Positions 1,702 to 20,830 of a stretch of DNA of 39,324 nucleotides are shown in pieces. Every line of letters starts with the position of its first letter. The first letter of the stretch is position 1. Source of the stretch: a virus (Duplodnaviria; Caudoviricetes). Both the position numbers and the translations under genes were made by a program. Under the pieces are notes generated by a model. That model was not told the DNA's origin. It saw only the letters and a list, made by a program, of their open reading frames with translations, and ran no database searches. The DNA lies in the IMG/VR virus record IMGVR_UViG_3300032272_000039, positions 1 through 39,324 of that record, one strand, 5' to 3'.

Positions 1702-2204
1702 TAGATTCGAATCAAAGATCCAGTGCCTCCAAAGGTCTTGAAAAGTGGGTCAAGCAAGGCGTTCACCTTCGCAAAGATCGGCTGAAGATTCACTACGCCG
1801 TTATCTGAGTATTGGACTTCCAGAACATCGACCTTCTCTTTAACAATCGCTTGGCCGTCGTTCACGTTGTAGATGTCCACCGTCGAAGAGTCGAAGGTAA
1901 GCTGCGCCTGAGCGTCTTTAAGCTGCTGGGGGATCTCTGTTGAGGTGATCGAGTATGAATAGACCTCTACCCAAGAGCGAGGCCACACAAGCGCCTGAGC
2001 GTCACTATTCTTCGTCCCCTGGTATCGTTCAGCTTGAGCCTCCAGCCAATCTTTAGCCTGGATGATGCGGCCCGTCTTGGCGTCGTCTGATCCGGCATCC
2101 GTCAAACCTCGTTCGTCAAGGTAGGTGTTATACTCGGCAAGCGTGATGTACGTGTTAGAATTCGTCTTTCCGGTGCCGTCTTCTTCGATTAAAGTTGCTG
2201 CCAT
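1701..2204 (-). CDS. Head-tail adaptor (DnaT-like ssDNA-binding family annotation)
   Basis: EDGTG...NTYIT, QALVWPR, IPQQLKDAQAQL and KEKVDVLEVQY motifs. ATG 2204 preferred over TTG 2213, which lies in the terminator U-tract. Confidence 0.8.
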   Translation of the reverse strand: MAATLIEEDGTGKTNSNTYITLAEYNTYLDERGLTDAGSDDAKTGRIIQAKDWLEAQAERYQGTKNSDAQALVWPRSWVEVYSYSITSTEIPQQLKDAQAQLTFDSSTVDIYNVNDGQAIVKEKVDVLEVQYSDNGVVNLQPIFAKVNALLDPLFKTFGGTGSLIRI

Positions 2205-2211
2205 TTCGCCC

Positions 2212-2240
2212 AAAAAGCCGTCTCCTTTGAGGGAGACGGC
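2212..2240 (-). terminator. Intrinsic terminator after the major capsid gene
   Basis: Minus strand reads GCCGTCTCC-CTCAAA-GGAGACGGC-TTTTT: 9-bp stem plus U-tract, 30 nt after the capsid stop. Confidence 0.85.
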
Positions 2241-2270
2241 AGATTATGAATAATAACGAAGAAATTCGTT

Positions 2271-3443
2271 CTAGCCCTTGATCGTGTTGACCAAATACTC
2301 GTTCCAAACCTTCACTCCGGCGAACGCTTGAACTCGCAAGAGCTGCATTCCTTCACCTGGGTAGATCGAGTAAGCGTAAGTGATCCCGGCGACATCATCG
2401 GTGATGGTATCGTGGAGGATCGCTTTGTCTTGGCCCAAATCTGGAGCGCGTGAGGCGAGTTCTGCCGCTTCCGCATTGAATGCGATGTTCGGCGTGTAAG
2501 TTGCCTGAATCGTGATTGCGTTGTTGTCAGCGATTGCGACCAAAACGCCAGGACCGCCAATTGTGATCGTGCCCGATGTCGCAAGGAGTGCCGTGCTTGT
2601 TACGACATACTCGTTCACCGTGTCGGCAGCAAACTTGATCACGTCGCCAGGCTGGATTCCGGTTGTGTTAACCGTACCGCCATCTACAGCAATCGAGGTA
2701 TCACCAACTGACAATGCACCGTTCACGAGGTAGCCTGTTCCTGCTCCCTTTGTGTGTGATACGATTCCGGCAGACTCACGAAGAGCAAAACCGTTTACGT
2801 CGATGAGAACACCACTGCGGAAGAGATCCTGATCGGCTGGCTGGCGTCCTGATTGGATACCGAGCAACTTACGAACATTTGCACCTGCTGCGGTATTCAT
2901 TACAACTGAGTTCATTCCGTCGTAACGATTGCCACCATTATCAACGAGGATCTTCATGGAGTCCTCAAGTAGATCAGTGTTGGATGCGAAGGGAGTCGTT
3001 CCGGCTGTACCAATAGCACGAGAAGAGCCTTGAGCCAGCTTTAGAGCTACATCGGCTTCGAGCTGATTACGCATACCGCGCAAGCCCTTCATGATGCGGC
3101 GTTGTAGCTGAGTCATTCCACCCAAGCCGACATTATCAGCATGGCGCATTTGCTCAGGAAGGATCGATGCTTCGAACTTAAGATAAGTGTCGAGCGCGAA
3201 AGTGTCCTTCGTGTCTGAATCATCAGGACCATCAGAAGAGCTCATCTTTGGAGTGTAGGAGCTGGATTTTGTGATGGTCACATCTCCAGTGACAACGCTC
3301 TCGACCGAAGATCCAAAGGATGCAGTCGTTACGTTCGATTTGTTACGCTCAATTGCGTTAAGGAAACCAACCGGCTCTTGCTGGATACGCTCCATAGAGC
3401 TGTACATGGTTTCGATGAGGGTGTCTGTGCTAGTGTTAGCCAT
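2271..3443 (-). CDS. Major capsid protein (P22 coat-like, with insertion domain)
   Basis: 390 aa after the scaffold gene; SSRAIGTAGTTPFAS and YTPNIAF motifs; Gly/Thr-rich insertion GTGYLVNGALSVGDTSIAVDGG; followed by a terminator. Confidence 0.85.
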   Translation of the reverse strand: MANTSTDTLIETMYSSMERIQQEPVGFLNAIERNKSNVTTASFGSSVESVVTGDVTITKSSSYTPKMSSSDGPDDSDTKDTFALDTYLKFEASILPEQMRHADNVGLGGMTQLQRRIMKGLRGMRNQLEADVALKLAQGSSRAIGTAGTTPFASNTDLLEDSMKILVDNGGNRYDGMNSVVMNTAAGANVRKLLGIQSGRQPADQDLFRSGVLIDVNGFALRESAGIVSHTKGAGTGYLVNGALSVGDTSIAVDGGTVNTTGIQPGDVIKFAADTVNEYVVTSTALLATSGTITIGGPGVLVAIADNNAITIQATYTPNIAFNAEAAELASRAPDLGQDKAILHDTITDDVAGITYAYSIYPGEGMQLLRVQAFAGVKVWNEYLVNTIKG

Positions 3444-3458
3444 TTTTTATGCGGTGTT

Positions 3459-4205
3459 TTAAGTTAAGTTGATGCCCTCTTTGATGAGGGATTTTCTCTC
3501 AGATTCCGGTTTTGCCAGAAAGTCAGAGCGCTTCATTGTTGTGCCGGTAGCACCGCCACCTTTACCATTTGAGCCATCAGCACCGCCGCCGCTCCCTTTG
3601 CTTCCAACAATAATGCTGGAAAAAGATTTGTCGTTGTAGAATTCATTTCGCAAATCGTCAAGACTCAAAGCACTTGGCTTACCATCTTGCGACAAGACTC
3701 TGGTTGATGCCCCATTCTCTCCTATCTCGCTTTTAAGGCGTTTTTGGATGTGGGGGAGGATAACAGCCGCGTTTTCGCCTGCGAGGTTTGCAGCGAGCTT
3801 GTGGGCTTCCTGGTTAACCGTGAGGTCAGAAATCATTCCGTCACGCCTTTTTATTTCGGCCTGAAGCGATTCCTGAAGCTTCTCCCTCTGTTCGATGTGA
3901 CTCTTTTCGATTGCCTCCCAATCGCCCGACTTCTTAGCGGCGTCGAGTTCAAGCTGTCGCTTCTGCTCTGCGATGGCGTCTCTTTCAGCCTTTCGCTCAT
4001 CCTCCAAAGACTTCAAGCGCTCGGTGAGGCTTTCGAGTTCTGCGGATTTCTCCTGCTTTGAGTCTTTTTCTCTTTGCTTCGCTCTCAAGAGAGCATCTGG
4101 CGTTTGAAAGTTGTACTTTCCGGACTCTTCATCCTTCGCGTACATGCCTTGATAAGGTTCATCGATCCCGTCTAGGGAATCCGTTACTAACGGTAGGTTT
4201 TCCAT
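3459..4205 (-). CDS. Capsid scaffolding protein
   Basis: Charged coiled coil, ILPHIQKRL motif and Gly-rich C-terminus (GSKGSGGGADG); directly upstream of the capsid gene. Confidence 0.85.
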   Translation of the reverse strand: MENLPLVTDSLDGIDEPYQGMYAKDEESGKYNFQTPDALLRAKQREKDSKQEKSAELESLTERLKSLEDERKAERDAIAEQKRQLELDAAKKSGDWEAIEKSHIEQREKLQESLQAEIKRRDGMISDLTVNQEAHKLAANLAGENAAVILPHIQKRLKSEIGENGASTRVLSQDGKPSALSLDDLRNEFYNDKSFSSIIVGSKGSGGGADGSNGKGGGATGTTMKRSDFLAKPESERKSLIKEGINLT

Positions 4206-4244: not shown

Positions 4245-4667
4245 CTAGACTTCTACTCCGGCCCTCTCGAATACCTCCGGCGCCTTGGCTTGCATCTCGT
4301 CGAGCGTGAGAGGTTCAAAGTTGCGGTTGAGATTCAGCTTTGCGAATTCGTCAGCGCTCAAGCCTCCATTGCGAAGGAGATTGCCCCTCGTCTTCCCTAT
4401 TGCTGAATCCTGGAATCCCTTTGGCTGCTTCTTGAGCCATGAGTAATAAGTCTCATTCGCATCGACTGGACCGTCTACGCTCGCCCTCGTCGCTCCCTCA
4501 TCTAGGAAATCAAGGGATTCGTCGAGAACTGGAACTGTCGTTGATCTACAATTGTGTGTCACGAATCCATCGCAAATAAAAGTCTCATCGCCATCAACGG
4601 ACAAGTTGTAGACTTTTCCATTGTAACTCTCCTCTACAGTCGTTTTGATAGTCACGGTACTAAACAT
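4245..4667 (-). CDS. Minor head protein (gpF/SPP1 gp7-like) C-terminal half fused to Int-C of a split intein
   Basis: MFSTVTIKTTVEESYNGKVYNLSVDGDETFICDGFVTHN|CRSTTVP contains intein blocks F and G and Cys+1, followed by the gpF-type GATRAS...TYYSWLKKQP...Q..G.TR. Start at ATG 4667 (39-aa Int-C) is inferred; the ORF is open to 4742. Confidence 0.85.
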   Translation of the reverse strand: MFSTVTIKTTVEESYNGKVYNLSVDGDETFICDGFVTHNCRSTTVPVLDESLDFLDEGATRASVDGPVDANETYYSWLKKQPKGFQDSAIGKTRGNLLRNGGLSADEFAKLNLNRNFEPLTLDEMQAKAPEVFERAGVEV

Positions 4668-5591
4668 GACACTAAAAACATTAAATCTATGAAGAAGAAC
4701 ATCAGCGATGAGACGATAAAGGAACTTATTAAAATTGAGCATTATCAGAATGGTAAAAGCTTAAGACGGATTGAGCGTGAAAACTCCCTTTCAAATGATA
4801 CCATAAGAAAGAGGTGTATTAAAATGGGTATTGAAACAAAAAGCAGAATCAAATCCATAAACGATAATATGAAGTATGTCGATGTTCCAAGTGGAGATAA
4901 CCACTGGATATCAAAAAGGCCAGAAGACGGCAAGAAACTAGCATTGATACACTCTAAGAGAATGAAGAGCAACAATCCTTCGAACGATTCTGAAATATTG
5001 ATACGCATAGCGAAATCTAAAGCTAAGACATATTCACAAAACCCAACGCCACATGAACTTATGTTTAAGGAATTTCTGAAATCTGAAAAAATTCCGTTTG
5101 ATTTTCAATACCGTGTTGATCGCTTTATATCTGATTTCAGAATATCCAACTGCCTTATCGAGCTTGATGGAAGAGGCCATGGCTCCAGGAAGCCTACTGA
5201 CATCGTAAGAGATAAGTTTCTCTGTGGTCTTGGTTGGAATGTTGTGAGAATTGATCAGGATAACATGTTCAATAAAAGGAGCAAAAAACCTGTTTTTAAT
5301 GCAAAAAAACTTATGCAGGTTCTTGAAGAGTACATCTCCTGGATTGATGTCTCCCGCTCGCTTCCAGCCACCCTTAGCACTAAGCATAGGGTGATCGTCC
5401 GTCAAAGATATACTTCTTCCGAAGCCATCCACTAACTTCAGTACTTTCTCATCTGGATGCCTATCTCTGCTCATGACAGCAGTTACGGGCATCCATCTTC
5501 CCATGTGCGTAAGCACCAAGTCCCCGACCATGATATTCTCTATGGGAATCTTGCCCCGATTAGAGGTGATTAATCCCCCTTGTGCTATAGC
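4551..5591 (-). mobile_element. Split intein plus antisense endonuclease inserted at HYN|CRS of the minor head gene
   Basis: 1041 nt (347 codons) between PPIHYN and CRST. Block A AIAQGGLI, block B LTDDHPML, block F VYNLSV, block G FVTHN. Five in-frame stops lie between the halves. Confidence 0.9.
4689..5435 (+). CDS. Putative homing endonuclease, Vsr/DUF559-like PD-(D/E)XK nuclease with N-terminal HTH-like region
   Basis: PTPHE...FQYRVDRFISDF...LIELDGRGH...DIVRDKFLCGLGWNVVRI motif series; HTH-like GKSLRRIERENSLSNDTIRKRC; AT-rich. ATG 4689 is the likely start (track ORF starts at 4554). Confidence 0.85.
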   Translation: MKKNISDETIKELIKIEHYQNGKSLRRIERENSLSNDTIRKRCIKMGIETKSRIKSINDNMKYVDVPSGDNHWISKRPEDGKKLALIHSKRMKSNNPSNDSEILIRIAKSKAKTYSQNPTPHELMFKEFLKSEKIPFDFQYRVDRFISDFRISNCLIELDGRGHGSRKPTDIVRDKFLCGLGWNVVRIDQDNMFNKRSKKPVFNAKKLMQVLEEYISWIDVSRSLPATLSTKHRVIVRQRYTSSEAIH

Positions 5592-6356
5592 GTTGTAATG
5601 AATTGGCGGAACAGGACCCTGCCCTACAATATACCTATTATTACTGAGCGAGCGACACTGACTGGACGTTCTGCCATCGAGCGTCGAAACCCATTCGTAT
5701 TTTTCAATTATGTCAGAATTGGCGTTCCATGTCTGCTCTCTTGATCTCTGAGAAACGTGCTGCGTTGCGGTTCTGACCTGCGCTTCAATCCGTCTCTTTG
5801 CTTGCTGAGTGTAACCGTCGCTGTAGTTGGCGACTCTAGTTCCCCTGATTCGGCTTACCATCTGAGGGATCGTGAGCCCGTCTGAGTAACCGATTTGCAC
5901 GACGTTAACCAATTGGCTTTGCTCGTTCGCGGTCATCGTTGACCAAAACTTTTTCATAAAATTCCCCGTTGCTCTGATCGGCTGATTATTCGCGAACGAC
6001 ATCGCCGCTCCACTCGCAGGGGTCGCAACGGTTGCACCCTTCGTTACCGATTCAATCGCCTTCACCTCAAAGCCTGCCTGCTGCTCTGATAGCTTTGCGA
6101 GATCGACGTTGAGAGCTTCGACCTGATCGCCGATAGACTTGCCCGCAATAGCCCTGAGGTTAACCGTGAGCGCGTTGAGTTGCTTCTTGGTTAGTTGGTT
6201 CATGCGCTCAATATCAAGCGACATGACGGCGATTCCAGCGTCCCTTCCGAGCTTAACGATAACCTTTGTAAACTCATTAACCCGCCCGTTTTTGTAGCCC
6301 TCAAGAAATACTTGATTCCTAATCTCTATATCTTGGAGCTGTTCGTTTTGAGCCAT
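5034..6356 (-). CDS. Minor head protein N-terminal half (255-aa extein) fused to Int-N
   Basis: VRTATQHVS, WVSTLDGRTSSQCRSL and GPVPPIHYN motifs, then a Hint N-terminal region (IPIENIMVGDLVLTH, TDDHPM, GWKRAGDINPGD). Confidence 0.9.
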   Translation of the reverse strand: MAQNEQLQDIEIRNQVFLEGYKNGRVNEFTKVIVKLGRDAGIAVMSLDIERMNQLTKKQLNALTVNLRAIAGKSIGDQVEALNVDLAKLSEQQAGFEVKAIESVTKGATVATPASGAAMSFANNQPIRATGNFMKKFWSTMTANEQSQLVNVVQIGYSDGLTIPQMVSRIRGTRVANYSDGYTQQAKRRIEAQVRTATQHVSQRSREQTWNANSDIIEKYEWVSTLDGRTSSQCRSLSNNRYIVGQGPVPPIHYNAIAQGGLITSNRGKIPIENIMVGDLVLTHMGRWMPVTAVMSRDRHPDEKVLKLVDGFGRSISLTDDHPMLSAKGGWKRAGDINPGDVLFKNLHKFFCIKNRFFAPFIEHVILINSHNIPTKTTEKLISYDVSRLPGAMASSIKLDKAVGYSEIRYKAINTVLKIKRNFFRFQKFLKHKFMWRWVL

Positions 6357-15138: not shown

Positions 15139-15330
15139 ATTTTACACTTCTGCTCAACTGGTCTTACCAGTCAAGTCGTTGCCTCCGTTGCGTTTAAAAA
15201 AAGTATCGACATGCTGAGCTTGGCTATTACTAGCGAAGGCACTGAGCTGACTGATTTTGCCTTTGTTTGTTTTCGGAACTTCCGTCATGTTCTGCATCCT
15301 CTTGATCTGGCTGGTTTTGGCAAGATTAGA

Positions 15331-15669
15331 TTAATCCTCTACGATTTCCGGCATGTGCTTGCATTTGTGGAAAGACATTTCGTGCAGTTTCGTCCATGAA
15401 AGAGCTTCGAAGAGTACGCCGTCCACGATAACGTCTATCTGGTTTGCCCGTTCAGCTTTGAAAATCTCGTACCGCATAAGCTTTCCAGACCGTACGCTGT
15501 AGCGTGTCCAAACCTCTAGGAACTCGCCCGATGGTGTCAGGCGAGGCCCAAGTTTTCGATTCATCCTTGCGTGAGCCTGGAGCTCCTGAGAGCGCTTACC
15601 GCCTCTTGAGGATCGTTCGCGGAGGCGATCCCTTTTCAGGTCCCTTCGACTGTAGGCAAATTTTACCAT
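15331..15669 (-). CDS. Hypothetical basic protein
   Basis: 112-aa ORF on the operon strand, Arg-rich N-terminus. Confidence 0.65.
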   Translation of the reverse strand: MVKFAYSRRDLKRDRLRERSSRGGKRSQELQAHARMNRKLGPRLTPSGEFLEVWTRYSVRSGKLMRYEIFKAERANQIDVIVDGVLFEALSWTKLHEMSFHKCKHMPEIVED

Positions 15670-15686: not shown

Positions 15687-15705
15687 GGTTAACAAGGGGT
15701 TCTAC
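15687..15705 (+). other. attI-like simple recombination site at the head of the cassette array
   Basis: GGTTAAC-AAGGG-G|TTCTAC: two inverted 7-bp cores 5 bp apart. GTTCTAC is the exact reverse complement of the R'' of attC1. Confidence 0.6.
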
Positions 15706-15917
15706 GAAGATCGATTGACGTAGCTAAGGCAGTCTTTGGCCGATAACACCTCGCTTGGATCGACCCCCATTTGAAGGAGTCGGGAGTTTGCGAGGTCTAT
15801 CGCTTTAGACATCATCAAATCTTCTTCCTCTGACTCCGCACCCCCGCAGTCTTGCCCATTCGCAACACACGATAGCATGTATATTTTCGCAGCTTTATCT
15901 ATTTTTCTTTTAGTCAT
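15702..15917 (-). CDS. Cassette 1 hypothetical protein
   Basis: 71 aa; TAG stop inside the GTTCTAC core. Confidence 0.7.
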   Translation of the reverse strand: MTKRKIDKAAKIYMLSCVANGQDCGGAESEEEDLMMSKAIDLANSRLLQMGVDPSEVLSAKDCLSYVNRSS

Positions 15918-15931
15918 CGTTTTTTAAAAAG

Positions 15932-15988
15932 GTAGAACATTTCGATTCTTGGAACTCGCGCTGCTCGCCCCAGATCGATGGGTTGGCC
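15932..15988 (+). repeat. attC-like site 1 (57 bp)
   Basis: GTAGAAC-ATTTC-GAT(T)CTTGG...CCCAGATC-GATGG-GTTGGCC. Confidence 0.85.
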
Positions 15989-16270
15989 CTATTTAAAAAG
16001 TAGACGCCTTTCGGTCAGGGTCACGTAAACTTGATCGCTGTCATTCTTCTCCCAGTCGGTTTTGACATACCACAAGCTACCGGATTCGTCTTTTACAAAA
16101 AAACCATTTGCCCACCCTGGACGGGTTTCAACTTCGCCTTCAAATGATTTCTCGACAGCCCGTTGGCGGTCATAGTGCGTCGGTGCATGGGTGCATCCGG
16201 CCAACAAAGCAGCCCATACAATGGCGAAAATCGCCGCGATTCGTGTTAGTTTTCGAGTATTGGTTTTCAT
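15989..16270 (-). CDS. Cassette 2 putative lipoprotein
   Basis: Signal peptide MKTNTRKLTRIAAIFAIVWAALLAG-C with a lipobox. Confidence 0.75.
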   Translation of the reverse strand: MKTNTRKLTRIAAIFAIVWAALLAGCTHAPTHYDRQRAVEKSFEGEVETRPGWANGFFVKDESGSLWYVKTDWEKNDSDQVYVTLTERRLLFK

Positions 16271-16330
16271 ATCAGTATTTCTGTTTGGTTTAGATTCTAG
16301 GTTTCGCCACGTATGGCTTTGAGGTTAGCC
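16199..16330 (+). repeat. attC-like site 2 (132 bp)
   Basis: GGCCAAC-AAAGC-AGC(C)CATACAATGGCGAAA...TTTCGCCACGTATGGCT-TTGAG-GTTAGCC. Confidence 0.88.
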
Positions 16331-16516
16331 AATTACATGAACGCAACAGAGTCGATTTCGACCAATGAATCGGGATTCTTTTTTGCCGTTCTTGAGCGTT
16401 CTGTCGAGGCGGGTTAGTGGTCGTGAGGCGTATCCAACTATCCAGCGATTACCTCCGCTGATTACTGTCATCCCTTCTCGGATCACGTTTCCGTCTTTAT
16501 CTGTGGTTTCTCTCAT
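16325..16516 (-). CDS. Cassette 3 hypothetical protein
   Basis: 63 aa (DKDGNVIREGMTV, SH3/YopX-like start); TAA stop inside the GTTAGCC core. Confidence 0.7.
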   Translation of the reverse strand: MRETTDKDGNVIREGMTVISGGNRWIVGYASRPLTRLDRTLKNGKKESRFIGRNRLCCVHVIG

Positions 16517-16528
16517 ATCGAAAATCTA

Positions 16529-16613
16529 GGATAACAAATCGTACGCCCAACACGGGTAAGCGCTCCTTGGTTTAGTCAGCCCCATTCCCGTGTGGGGGTA
16601 CTCGCGGTTCTAC
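16529..16613 (+). repeat. attC-like site 3 (85 bp)
   Basis: GGATAAC-AAATC-GTACGCCCAACACGGG...CCCGTGTGGGGGTAC-TCGCG-GTTCTAC. Confidence 0.85.
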
Positions 16614-16873
16614 AGATATTTATTCGCTTCCTTCACCGCATCACGGTCTTGCTTTGTAGCCGATGGGAACACCATATCCGACCAGGGGCACATCCTGAAG
16701 TCCCAAGTCATCTGATAGTTTCTGACAGTAAAGTACCAGAGCTTGCCGCTCCAATATCGCTCGAAGTGAAACCACTTTGTGAAGCAGTTTTTCCCGACCT
16801 TTTTGCGGTCGTATTTGTGGAAACTCACTTCTGGAAACTTCCAACGGTTTGCTTTGAGTATATTCAGTTTCAT
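16610..16873 (-). CDS. Cassette 4 hypothetical protein
   Basis: Likely start ATG 16873 (MKLNILK); the track's extension to 16957 only reads through attC4. TAG stop in the core. Confidence 0.7.
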   Translation of the reverse strand: MKLNILKANRWKFPEVSFHKYDRKKVGKNCFTKWFHFERYWSGKLWYFTVRNYQMTWDFRMCPWSDMVFPSATKQDRDAVKEANKYL

Positions 16874-16896
16874 ATTTGGTTCAGTTGTTAAAAAAG

Positions 16897-16956
16897 GTAG
16901 AACATAGCGCTGCTCACAACGTCGGCAAGCCGCCGCGTGAAAGCTTGAGGTTAGCA
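16897..16956 (+). repeat. attC-like site 4 (60 bp)
   Basis: GTAGAAC-ATAGC-GCT(G)CTCAC...GTGAAAGC-TTGAG-GTTAGCA. Confidence 0.88.
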
Positions 16957-17184
16957 TGGGATACCAAAATGAAGTTCGTCTATTTCACTTTCTCGGATCG
17001 AAACAAACTTAGAATCTATTTTCAGCGATGCGGCGATTGCTTTTTCGTATGTTGAAAACGCACCCCAGTAGGTGTCACCTTCATAGTCTATATCCTCAAA
17101 AACTACCCAAATTTTGCTAACAGGCCGCTTCTGGCAACCAGCACCATCTCCAGTTGTTTCGGTATTCACATTTTCATTACTCAT
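16951..17184 (-). CDS. Cassette 5 hypothetical protein
   Basis: 77 aa with KIWVVF...GAFSTYEKA; start inside the attC5 loop; TAA stop in the core. Confidence 0.75.
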   Translation of the reverse strand: MSNENVNTETTGDGAGCQKRPVSKIWVVFEDIDYEGDTYWGAFSTYEKAIAASLKIDSKFVSIRESEIDELHFGIPC

Positions 17185-17244
17185 ATCTTGATTTTGGTTA
17201 AGGTTAGTTTCTTGGGGAGCTGGCTCCAGAGCTCAGAGTTAGCG
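17115..17244 (+). repeat. attC-like site 5 (130 bp)
   Basis: TGCTAAC-AGGCC-GCT(T)CTGGCAACCAGCACC...GGAGCTGGCTCCAGAGC-TCAGA-GTTAGCG. Confidence 0.88.
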
Positions 17245-17559
17245 GAAGATAGATTGCCTCAGTGATTCCAAGCACCCCTCTCCCATTTCGTAAGTCTCTT
17301 TCGCAGTCTCATCGATCCACTGTTCCCCCATATGCGTGATCTGCCCGCTTTCATCCTTTCGGATTGCGATTCTTGTGTTCATTAGCCGCAGAGTCGCCAT
17401 GTCGTCTAGGATCGGTTTAGACTGCCGCAAGTATTCTTCCTTGAGTCTATTAGTTTCGCTAACAGGGCGACGCACACAACGAGCTACATCGCTCGCCTTT
17501 CGGTCGCTGTTTTCGTGGTCTCGGGTCAGTAGGCCCATCTGCATTTCTGTTTCAGTCAT
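17239..17559 (-). CDS. Cassette 6 hypothetical protein
   Basis: 106 aa; start inside the attC6 loop; TAA stop in the core. Confidence 0.7.
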   Translation of the reverse strand: MTETEMQMGLLTRDHENSDRKASDVARCVRRPVSETNRLKEEYLRQSKPILDDMATLRLMNTRIAIRKDESGQITHMGEQWIDETAKETYEMGEGCLESLRQSIFR

Positions 17560-17586
17560 CGCTCGTATATGGTCTTAGGGTTCTAA
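17457..17586 (+). repeat. attC-like site 6 (130 bp)
   Basis: CGCTAAC-AGGGC-GAC(G)CACACAACGAGC...GCTCGTATATGGTC-TTAGG-GTTCTAA. Confidence 0.85.
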
Positions 17587-17855
17587 AGAGATTGAACTAG
17601 CTTCAATTCTGCCTCTTGGATCATTCGCCCAAACTGCTTCCCCTCCTCCGTTCCGAAGGTCTTATCGTCAACGAGCACCCTAAGCCCTTGGATCATTATC
17701 CATGTACGGCCCTCCTTTGCGCAGGTATGTCTCATTTCCCCAGTCGGTATCGTCATATTCCCGCGAGCATCGGACTTCAGAACCTCTTCTGATTCCCATT
17801 CTGATTCCAGTACGACGACGGTGCCGCATTCTAGCTTTATTTCGTATTCTCTCAT
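17583..17855 (-). CDS. Cassette 7 hypothetical protein
   Basis: Likely start ATG 17855 (MREYEIKLECG, preceded by TAATT); TAG stop in the core. Confidence 0.7.
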   Translation of the reverse strand: MREYEIKLECGTVVVLESEWESEEVLKSDARGNMTIPTGEMRHTCAKEGRTWIMIQGLRVLVDDKTFGTEEGKQFGRMIQEAELKLVQSL

Positions 17856-17868
17856 AATTATAAATTGG

Positions 17869-17935
17869 TTAGAACATGCCACTGGATTCAAATCCAGCCG
17901 CTGCGCGTCTTACGCGAATCAGTTCTGGGTTAGCT
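17869..17935 (+). repeat. attC-like site 7 (67 bp)
   Basis: TTAGAAC-ATGCC-ACT(G)GATTC...GAATCAGT-TCTGG-GTTAGCT. Confidence 0.85.
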
Positions 17936-18059
17936 ATTTCTTTTTCCTCTTCCACCATCCGCACCAAAGCATCTGATTTTCAGATCGTTTGACGGTTTTG
18001 TTTTTCTTGCATCCGTTGGCGGTTTTGTACCTGCAATTTTCGCACGATTCGTTATTCAT
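17934..18059 (-). CDS. Small Cys-rich protein, 41 aa (below the ORF-track cutoff)
   Basis: MNNESCENCRYKTANGCKKNKTVKRSENQMLWCGWWKRKKK, with GAGATT before the ATG. Confidence 0.6.
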   Translation of the reverse strand: MNNESCENCRYKTANGCKKNKTVKRSENQMLWCGWWKRKKK

Positions 18060-18063
18060 AATC

Positions 18064-18219
18064 TCAATATCTCCACTTGCTCACGGCTCTTTCAATGCCG
18101 TCTGTAATGTTCTTGGCTGCTTTGTCCTTCACGGCTTCCGCTAGCCTCTTCTCGGTGTCCTGGGAGAGCTTCACGCATCTTGGCTTGGCTTTCCGGTCCT
18201 CTGGTTTCTTAGTCGGCAT
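18064..18219 (-). CDS. Small ribbon-helix-helix-like DNA-binding protein, 51 aa
   Basis: MPTKKPEDRKAKPRCVKLSQDTEKRLAEAVKDKAAKNITDGIERAVSKWRY; TAATG overlap with the upstream stop. Confidence 0.55.
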   Translation of the reverse strand: MPTKKPEDRKAKPRCVKLSQDTEKRLAEAVKDKAAKNITDGIERAVSKWRY

Positions 18220-18623
18220 TAAAGACACCCTTCAATTCGCGGTTTTCCGCTAAAAGTGAAACCATGCCCGTAATATCCATTATGGCAGTTCTCAAGCCTC
18301 ACATACAAATCAGGCTCTCGGTAGCTTACTATCTTGAATATTGCAAAACTCCCGCCCTCTTCTTCATAGGAATCCTCATTTCCCTCAAAGAAATCTGTGT
18401 CGAAACTATAGTTTTCGAGGTGTATTTCCTGCGGCTCCTCATTGTCTCCCTTGTGAATGGCATCTGAGCCGTCCTTATTTGGCCCGATGCTCCAGGATGC
18501 ATTTTCGCAACAGCACTGTCCAAGATCGTATCCAAGCAATACATTTGCATGATCGATGAAATTCACCTTACCGGGAAATGTTTCTGTGTAGCTAAATATT
18601 CTCATACTCATACCCATCACCAT
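18219..18623 (-). CDS. Hypothetical protein
   Basis: QCCCE and NCHNGYYGH motifs seen in phage hypotheticals; true start may be ATG 18611 or 18605. Confidence 0.75.
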   Translation of the reverse strand: MVMGMSMRIFSYTETFPGKVNFIDHANVLLGYDLGQCCCENASWSIGPNKDGSDAIHKGDNEEPQEIHLENYSFDTDFFEGNEDSYEEEGGSFAIFKIVSYREPDLYVRLENCHNGYYGHGFTFSGKPRIEGCL

Positions 18624-18646
18624 ACCCCCTTCGCTCAGTCGGTCAA
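18619..18646 (-). promoter_or_regulatory. Putative sigma70-like promoter reading toward the cassette array
   Basis: TTGACC-16 nt-TATGGT on the minus strand, same -35 and spacing as the sites at 21486 and 23030. Confidence 0.45.
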
Positions 18647-20291: not shown

Positions 20292-20830
20292 AATTTCATT
20301 TGGTTGGTTCTGTTATTCGTCGAAAGTCATTCGCTTATCCGGTATTCGCAATCCTTCACAGCCTGCAAAAGATCCAGGGGAGCGGAGTTCGATCCCCCCT
20401 TACCCATGAGAGAGTAAGGAGAGAAATCCATTCTAGCCATGCAATGAGTCACTGGTCTAGCGTATGTTTAGCAAACTAAGGCTGGTTCATCCCCAGAAAT
20501 TACACCGTCAAGCGTTTGCATCGATCCCCCAGCGTTACGAGTCGCTGGCATATACCGCCTCCAGGAGATGGTTTTTCTCGGGAGGTAAGGCCGTGTGCTT
20601 TTGCCCTTATGGAGCCAGGAAGCTTGTGAGACGGCGATCAGAGTTCGCAAGTGAACGGAACCACTAAAAGAGAAAGGCCATCTCCGCGTCAAGCAGAAAT
20701 GGCCTTCAAAGTCTTGCGAACCCTGTCTATTCAAAAACTAAAAACCTTTTGTACATTTATTGTCAATTCCTATGTGCATTTTTTGTACATCTTGAGTAAA
20801 TCGCTCAAGTTACCGGGGATTAGGTTACGT

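Follow-up and report, generated by a model that had tools for sequence, protein, structure and literature searches.

The linear record IMGVR_UViG_3300032272_000039, a 92%-complete tailed-phage genome of 39,324 bases that is covered in full by the window analysed here, carries seven attC-type integron cassettes (15699–17935) whose open reading frames (ORFs) run against the orientation of their own recombination sites. From sequence evidence, the attC top strand was confirmed as the plus strand, with all seven ORFs on the bottom strand. With 7 attC sites and no neighbouring integron integrase gene (intI), the array is by definition a CALIN (cluster of attC sites lacking integron integrases); judged by its sequence it behaves as an integron array in build, yet it is not a canonical cassette set. 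A probability of about 0.82 was assigned to the reading that these are seven bottom-strand cassettes, likely built by an integron integrase (IntI) at 15687–15705 and likely read in the leftward operon, which would need an integrase supplied in trans by the host or a co-infecting phage.

Build and strand polarity of the array

The cassettes form units of 283–349 bases bounded by eight GTT cores (Table 1). One geometry is common to all seven sites, running AAC, 5 nt, 3 bp, one bulged base, 4 bp, and on the other side 4+3 bp, 5 nt, GTT; the single bulged base sits in the left arm, spacers are 5/5 nt, and the L-box score is 6–7 of 7 throughout. Compared over 28 variable bases, the left cores (R'') agree with the cores that open their cassettes at 27 and with their hairpin partners at 9; a cross-match as good was obtained in 2 of 40,320 permutations (p = 5e-5). 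On sequence grounds, this cross-matching is read as the mark of halves exchanged by past recombination. The cassette detector returned 0 cassettes on 1.34 Mb of shuffled loci, and Rfam and tRNA searches gave zero matches. Mis-assembly is unlikely, because contigs of one public sequencing run, possibly the one from which this DNA came, match the array with zero differences. Cassettes 1 and 4 share an identical core and A-rich stretch before R'' (15921–15938 and 16886–16903; AAAAAGGTAGAACA); their ORFs are unrelated.

The sequence-only reading had placed the attC top strand on plus by arm asymmetry and core matching. The placement stood, by bulge side, covariance models and array ends; core matching was rejected as a polarity test, because a match reads identically from either strand and cannot fix the top strand. 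For the bulge side, the plus-as-top and mirror readings were each scored out of 7 with spacers allowed to vary, following the rule, given in the accessible text of PMC5027507, that the extrahelical base in the L'' arm marks the strand. Plus-as-top scored 6–7 versus 4–5 for the mirror at six of the seven sites, and under the same rule most annotated ORFs of the Vibrio, Shewanella, class 1 and TJE1 arrays come out on the top strand. Two covariance models were used, both small and home-made: R1, from 19 bacterial bottom strands chosen by the analysis's own detector, and R2, from 10 sites of two other phages with the strand inherited from R1. R1 matched end to end on minus at attC1, 2, 4, 5 and 7 (5/7) and nowhere end to end on plus; R2 matched on minus at attC2, 3, 4, 6 and 7 (5/7). 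The covariance-model check suggested for the top strand placed the bottom strand on minus at 7/7 sites when both models were combined, with low scores (6.7–27.2 bits) and correct boundaries at all seven. The array ends fit plus-as-top as well, with a hairpin-free simple site at the left and, above ORF8 at the right, no matching core. Moreover, ORFs 2, 5 and 6 have their starts within the hairpin that lies to the right of each, so that attC2, 5 and 6 must travel with them. As a strand test, folding energy and fold probability were rejected, giving no discrimination here or in Vibrio controls.

All seven cassette ORFs lie on minus, in the direction of the surrounding operon, and six stops belong to the 7-nt core itself (cassettes 3, 5 and 6 with TTA at +1, cassettes 1, 4 and 7 with CTA at +3), the stop of cassette 2 beginning at the first base past it; both points had been noted from the letters alone and were confirmed for this array. 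Overlooked at that stage were the attI-like site, the absence of an integrase, and the starts of ORFs 2, 5 and 6 within their own attC (72, 70 and 103 bases inside the hairpin), by which one arm becomes coding. AAC follows the stop within at most 9 nt in 7/7 cassette genes versus 14/51 other phage genes (Fisher p = 4e-4), a test in which the core itself helped to define the cassette set. In a codon model, the minus ORFs scored −0.03 to +0.13, like the phage's own small genes, and 14 of 16 plus ORFs scored worse (−0.16 to −0.76). As far as coding statistics and family matches (91 relatives of ORF4, phrog_3002 for ORF5) tell, the minus ORFs are the genes; the notion that plus-strand ORFs could be the real products was not borne out. 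Several cassette starts carry an A/C-rich leader as in ordinary phage genes, with no Shine–Dalgarno motif by eye; phage-wide, many genes have an AACC-rich leader before the ATG and lack that motif. TAG closes 5 of 8 array-side ORFs versus 5 of 51 other phage genes.

Three hairpins appear to contribute protein sequence. The first 24 codons of ORF2, including the hydrophobic stretch before LLAGC, are coded within attC2, an arm of which likely codes a lipoprotein signal. ORF5 has a 23-residue leader coded by attC5, and its family match begins just past the hairpin; the leader is probably an add-on. No function was assigned by family match to ORF1, ORF3 or ORF7, and Pfam, PHROG and NCBIfam gave ORF1 nothing. 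From their size, their position and the contents of related arrays, the seven products are likely accessory genes for host interaction. The phage accessory character suggested earlier is borne out by the match of ORF5 to phrog_3002 and by an ORF4 relative in an attC-free phage operon.

Reversed cassettes in viral and bacterial loci

Arrays were found in 24 of 80 bacterial IntI loci, with 98 cassettes called by longest ORF as 86 canonical, 5 reversed and 7 uncalled. Among 114 bacterial ORFs scanned (86 sense, 28 antisense), all 15 Pfam matches were sense. Viral IntI loci held arrays in 26 of 107 cases, and after exclusion of duplicates and three Vibrio-type loci, 144 ORFs (85 sense, 59 antisense) from 22 loci were scanned. 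Here 20 PHROG matches were antisense versus 3 sense (20/23), two of the three sense ones in one all-canonical array; the libraries differ, with PHROGs used for the viral and Pfam for the bacterial set. At the 14 viral loci with antisense matches, the array lies upstream of intI, and all 86 of 86 model matches have the bottom strand on the intI strand and on the coding strand, the latter taken from the 20 PHROG-supported ORFs. The stop of the viral antisense ORFs is at most 17 bases from the crossover in 15 of 20. Longest-ORF strand calls were noisy in GC-rich viral loci and were replaced by the family matches. Integrases beside reversed arrays cluster in a tree of 31 rows (3 label changes versus about 10.6 when shuffled), with labels set partly by hand, the Rctr41k row keeping a withdrawn label and a single clade not shown. 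These sequence comparisons support the view that reversed cassettes are a distinct class enriched in phages (20/23 viral matches antisense versus 15/15 bacterial matches sense), in line with the distinct class proposed earlier. The stop inside the core failed as a property of the class, since in a second reversed phage array (contig G001, locus L356) 7 of 10 stops lie 21–72 nt past the crossover.

Rctr41k (KX853513) was withdrawn as a reversed example, as its sites, taken with a 4-nt spacer, fit the canonical reading better. This locus (L111, 4680–10100) and L115–L118 are phages with their own IntI, an array downstream, 116–131-nt sites and a 4-nt spacer. In a scan of 50 terminase loci with R2, one reversed attC was seen upstream of terS/terL beside a terminase relative of 58% identity (L333, 4498–4586). 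Single inverted cassettes are known in bacterial arrays; a Vibrio chromosomal-type array (L081, 29527–30195) has an inverted methyltransferase cassette with its stop inside the crossover core.

The ORF4 family comprises 91 relatives, and a scan with seven of them gave three loci (L356, L357, L358), all viral (3/3) in a search where only viral contigs could yield loci. Homologues with and without attC flanks, which the sequence-only reading had proposed to look for, were both found. In G001 (L356), the relative is a cassette in a ten-site reversed array in which nine cassettes in a row have perfectly matching cores, the start of 8 of the 10 ORFs falls within the ORF's own attC, and one cassette gene has a family match starting at residue 18, after a leader as in ORF5. 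The order there is rusA, ten reversed attC, an attI-like end, intI, terS, terL, capsid. The intI match reached 247 bits, below the family cut-off of 265, with an IntI-type insertion seen by eye. The array occupies the same genomic place as here, intI standing where orf0 stands (50 nt from the crossover versus 30 nt for orf0). The arms of attC6 resemble one attC of G001. At L357, the ORF4 relative stands among attC sites and its own site looks decayed; at L358, a 234-kb phage record, it lies in a plain operon in which no attC was found. The relatives of L356 and L358 are distant (27–33% identity), and the order of events is therefore not fixed. Five ORF4 relatives (P0026, P0037, P0063, P0078, P0087) have variable N-terminal leaders and C-terminal tails with an attC-coded look, confirmed on DNA for P0026 only.

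Further homologue searches added little. ORF6 and ORF4 as single queries against viral contigs found no relatives, the ORF4 alignment against metagenome contigs found only the phage itself, and ORF5 and ORF7 returned only themselves. GenBank phages gave no match to ORF5, to one ORF4 relative or to the array DNA, and all Atlas matches of ORF2 were below threshold. The ORF4 family and an attC pattern were each present in 0 of 401 Verrucomicrobiota genomes, a weak negative because this phylum was a guess at the host, and an IntI-like gene in 10 of 401; Verrucomicrobiota as host was dropped.

Array ends and genome setting

At its left end, the array closes on a simple site predicted from sequence to be the point of cassette insertion. 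No attC hairpin was found there by detector or covariance model; the site lies at the end where attI would be expected but shares no long consensus with other attI. ORF8, at the opposite end, is likely a resident gene beside an empty site. No tyrosine recombinase (PF00589) was matched in the 92%-complete record (0 matches), a six-frame search gave no IntI remnant, and orf0 was without match in Pfam, PHROG and NCBIfam. A single Pc-like promoter match on plus (9 of 12, 15317–15345) is at chance level, and a Pc could not express the cassette ORFs because they face attI. Reading from the array's distal end, as first suggested, agrees with the co-orientation of the ORFs with the operon and with the attI-like site lying downstream of them. 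The promoter named for it (18619–18646) did not hold up: it is a 9-of-12 match, one of 6 found versus 6.9 in shuffles, and its second hexamer overlaps the first ATG of the ORF at 18219–18623.

Table 1 Features of the cassette array and its flanks (cores given as the position of the G of GTT or as the start of R'')
Feature	Position	Strand	Description
orf0	15331–15669	−	112 aa; 30 nt from crossover; occupies the intI place of related phage integrons
attI-like simple site	15687–15705	+	GGTTAAC-5 nt-G|TTCTAC; checked by eye against the array-proximal ends of IntI loci
Crossover cores	15699, 15982, 16324, 16607, 16950, 17238, 17580, 17929	+	G of GTT
Left cores (R'')	15932, 16199, 16529, 16897, 17115, 17457, 17869	+	
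ORF1	15702–15917	−	71 aa; TAG stop inside core 15699; no family match
attC1	15932–15988	+	57 nt; plus as top strand; R1 11.4 bits, minus
ORF2	15989–16270	−	93 aa; likely lipoprotein; weak lipid-attachment matches below cut-off
attC2	16199–16330	+	132 nt; ORF2 start in loop; R2 27.2 bits, E 1.3e-4, minus
ORF3	16325–16516	−	63 aa; TAA stop inside core 16324; no family match
attC3	16529–16613	+	85 nt; R'' with one mismatch; bulge side ambiguous; R2 8.3 bits, minus
ORF4	16610–16873	−	87 aa; TAG stop inside core 16607; unnamed family, 91 relatives
attC4	16897–16956	+	60 nt; R1 and R2 12.2 bits, minus
ORF5	16951–17184	−	77 aa; phrog_3002/DUF7336-like domain from residue 24
attC5	17115–17244	+	130 nt; ORF5 start in loop; R1 6.7 bits, minus
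ORF6	17239–17559	−	106 aa; attC6-coded 34-residue leader; faint Gam-like matches only (E 0.025, 0.08)
attC6	17457–17586	+	130 nt; ORF6 start in loop; R2 15.9 bits, minus
ORF7	17583–17855	−	90 aa; TAG stop inside core 17580
attC7	17869–17935	+	67 nt; distal end of array; R1 15.5 bits, R2 20.1 bits, minus
ORF8	17934–18059	−	41 aa; flanking gene, stop overlaps last core; without own hairpin or matching core

The record has the gene content of a tailed phage, with head, tail, terminase and portal genes on minus and RecT and exonuclease on plus. Gene directions diverge near 21 kb, where GC skew changes sign together with gene direction and cannot separate replication from transcription. The array lies within a leftward operon, upstream of orf0, followed by a ParB-methyltransferase gene, terS and terL. 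This accessory operon is headed by an RNA ligase-like gene (PF09414, 19593–20291). In a non-coding stretch before it, two strong hairpins (20370–20405 and 20673–20707), one with a T-loop-like GTTCGATC, were without match in ARAGORN and Rfam. Repeated TGTACA palindromes stand beside TTGACA on minus at 20735–20790, a site that the consensus scan did not report; the region is possibly an operator with a leftward promoter. At 4245–6356, two ORFs of a divided head morphogenesis gene (phrog_241) flank an intein-like Hint region (Hint_2 and Intein_splicing matches), with a small ORF between them; the gene likely carries an intein and has been broken or interrupted.

Proposed mechanism, alternatives and known systems

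In the proposed mechanism, IntI would bind the folded minus strand and cut at G|TT, and the moving unit would be the TT-core, the ORF and its upstream hairpin. Stop, start and translation signal would all travel with the unit, the stop within the core and the other two inside the hairpin or directly behind it. The attI-like site, at the promoter-distal (left) end, would be the point of entry for new cassettes, and expression would come from an upstream phage promoter. The ancestor likely had intI where orf0 stands; the gene would have been lost from the lineage or never been in it, and integrase would be supplied in trans. A likely rationale for the reversal is that phage intI lies in the same operon downstream of attI, because of which only reversed cassettes share its transcript. 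Co-transcription with a downstream intI likely explains the reversal in 15 of 15 IntI-bearing reversed loci examined. More speculatively, the coding bottom strand would be on the lagging-strand template if transcription and replication were co-directional, an argument that assumes the replication direction, and attC folding would be favoured; a lagging-strand effect on attC folding is described in the accessible text of PMC5371416.

Several results weigh against parts of this account. On polarity, the R1 scores here (6.7–15.5 bits) are below the level of at least one chance match genome-wide, the strand of R2 derives from R1 and is not independent, the usual bulged G is present at only 2/7 sites, and attC3 gives a tie between plus-as-top and mirror. 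The bottom strand is lower in energy at 5/7 sites by at most 0.8 kcal/mol, which does not separate the strands, nor do the near-zero GC skew and the fold probability; AT skew is negative at 6/7 sites. On generality, longest-ORF calls in viral IntI loci, noisy as they are, gave 74 canonical, 41 reversed and 17 none of 132. The TJE1 phage array is canonical, the Rctr41k group is probably canonical and was mis-called by the detector, which found an array in 0/80 methylase loci and 0/80 terminase loci; no close relative with another cassette order was found. On activity, no recombination joints were seen among contigs of one public run, where contigs drop rare variants, and up to 8% of the genome may be missing from the record.

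Of the alternatives, the one that fares best, a possibility to be taken seriously at rather worse than even odds, is that of a frozen relic: assembly would date from a time when an ancestor still had intI, and the array would now be out of reach of any integrase. It concerns present activity only and is compatible with the structure. The record without a tyrosine recombinase and the contigs without joints agree with it, as do the sites decaying around the ORF4 relative at L357 and the mismatch in R'' of attC3. Against it, with 27/28 core bases still matching and seven L boxes pairing, decay has barely begun, and the attC sites of phages lacking an integrase serve as substrates for recombination by IntI1 (PMC9892861, accessible text).

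It is unlikely that rare inverted bacterial cassettes, derived from the host and kept for their fit to the operon, account for the array with no phage-side class behind it. The 5 reversed among 98 bacterial cassettes and the annotated inverted methyltransferase of the Vibrio locus L081 show a possible source, but Pfam gave no match to any of the 28 antisense ORFs from bacteria, and the viral ones match phage families. The cassette starts also have the A/C-rich leader of ordinary phage genes, ORF4 relatives with DNA context are viral in 3/3 (only viral contigs being searchable), and the family is absent from 401 bacterial genomes of one phylum (0/401; weak, the phylum being a guess at the host).

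Canonical cassettes, with the hairpin downstream of the gene, the top strand on minus and a misread bulge or a mirror-handed integrase, are very improbable. Core matching fits this reading equally, attC3 ties, energies do not discriminate, and Rctr41k shows that such misreading happened; however, it calls for two things that are absent, a hairpin below ORF1 and, above ORF8, a matching core, would assign to the neighbouring cassette the starts of ORFs 2, 5 and 6, has the lower mirror scores (4–5 versus 6–7) at six sites, and conflicts with intI, which independently marks the attI end in G001 and 14 viral loci. Scarcely credible is an incidental attC likeness of RNA hairpins for processing or termination between ordinary early genes: on the coding strand every gene does have a hairpin at its 5' end, and AAC after the stop is common in this phage (14/51 genes), but an RNA hairpin would pair with itself, and here the outer cores find their complement in the neighbouring site (27/28), not in their own partner (9/28), Rfam gave no match, and the same elements adjoin intI elsewhere.

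Beyond the seven bottom-strand cassettes of this phage lies a broader proposal, rated slightly better than even: phages would run their own mirror-image integron, with reversed accessory-gene cassettes cut at an AAC after the stop and a hairpin giving start and leader, shuffled by phage IntI and shared by integrase-less phages. As part of it, the ORF4 family (plain gene, cassette, neighbour of a decayed site) would preserve the stages by which cassettes arise and are lost. The AAC after the stop in 14 of 51 ordinary phage genes would be a ready supply of crossovers, which fits, without proving, capture at the 3' end. Cassette polarity has been treated as a fixed design rule, and the origin of cassettes is a long-open question; a family with and without attC, together with hairpins coding the first 23–34 residues, makes cassette birth testable. 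If the proposal is true, phages would use integron recombination to swap accessory genes; related arrays hold many methyltransferases and other likely counter-defence genes. Tools assuming that ORF strand equals attC strand would mis-annotate such arrays.

The seven small genes set here between integron-type hairpins face the other way from bacterial cassette genes and, with no integrase in this phage, were likely put together by an IntI like those that related phages have at this place, in what is likely a phage-side gene-swapping system. No description of phage arrays with ORFs antisense to attC was found in a literature search that left subscription journals mostly outside. The phage CALINs of PMC9892861 are likewise attC arrays in phages without intI; the accessible part of that text gives typical, divergent or multi-ORF arrangements and does not state ORFs antisense to attC. 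Its TJE1 array is canonical in the present test, unlike the array here. Its phage MW202573 gave 4 model matches (27–41 bits) with the bottom strand on the annotated ORF strand and is reversed by the present test, unremarked in the accessible source text; at 2069–3738 of that record (L355), where the attC bottom strand is the coding strand, ORF 2341–2673 ends inside the next attC. In the P12002L CALIN, neither detector nor model found a convincing attC site.

With canonical cassettes (class 1, Vibrio, Shewanella; PMC5027507, accessible text), the array shares AAC/GTT cores, 5-nt spacers, the bulge in the L'' arm, a length of 57–132 nt, core exchange with the neighbour and a simple site at one end. 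It differs in that the ORF is on the bottom strand, the hairpin stands ahead of the gene and the stop is at the crossover core rather than R'', and also in reading towards attI and not from Pc, in starts inside attC and in the lack of intI. If a canonical cassette had been inserted through its top strand, gene and hairpin would both be turned round, a pattern that the array does not show. The Treponema-type inverted-integrase integrons (PMC4889954) are likewise an orientation variant of the integron; according to the accessible text, intI is turned there relative to attC, whereas in this phage it is the ORF that is turned, with its own attC as the reference. Synthetic coding attC sites (PMC7439510, accessible text) were designed to code a peptide and yet recombine; in the present array, the loop holds the starts of three natural genes, whose reading frames run on through an arm.

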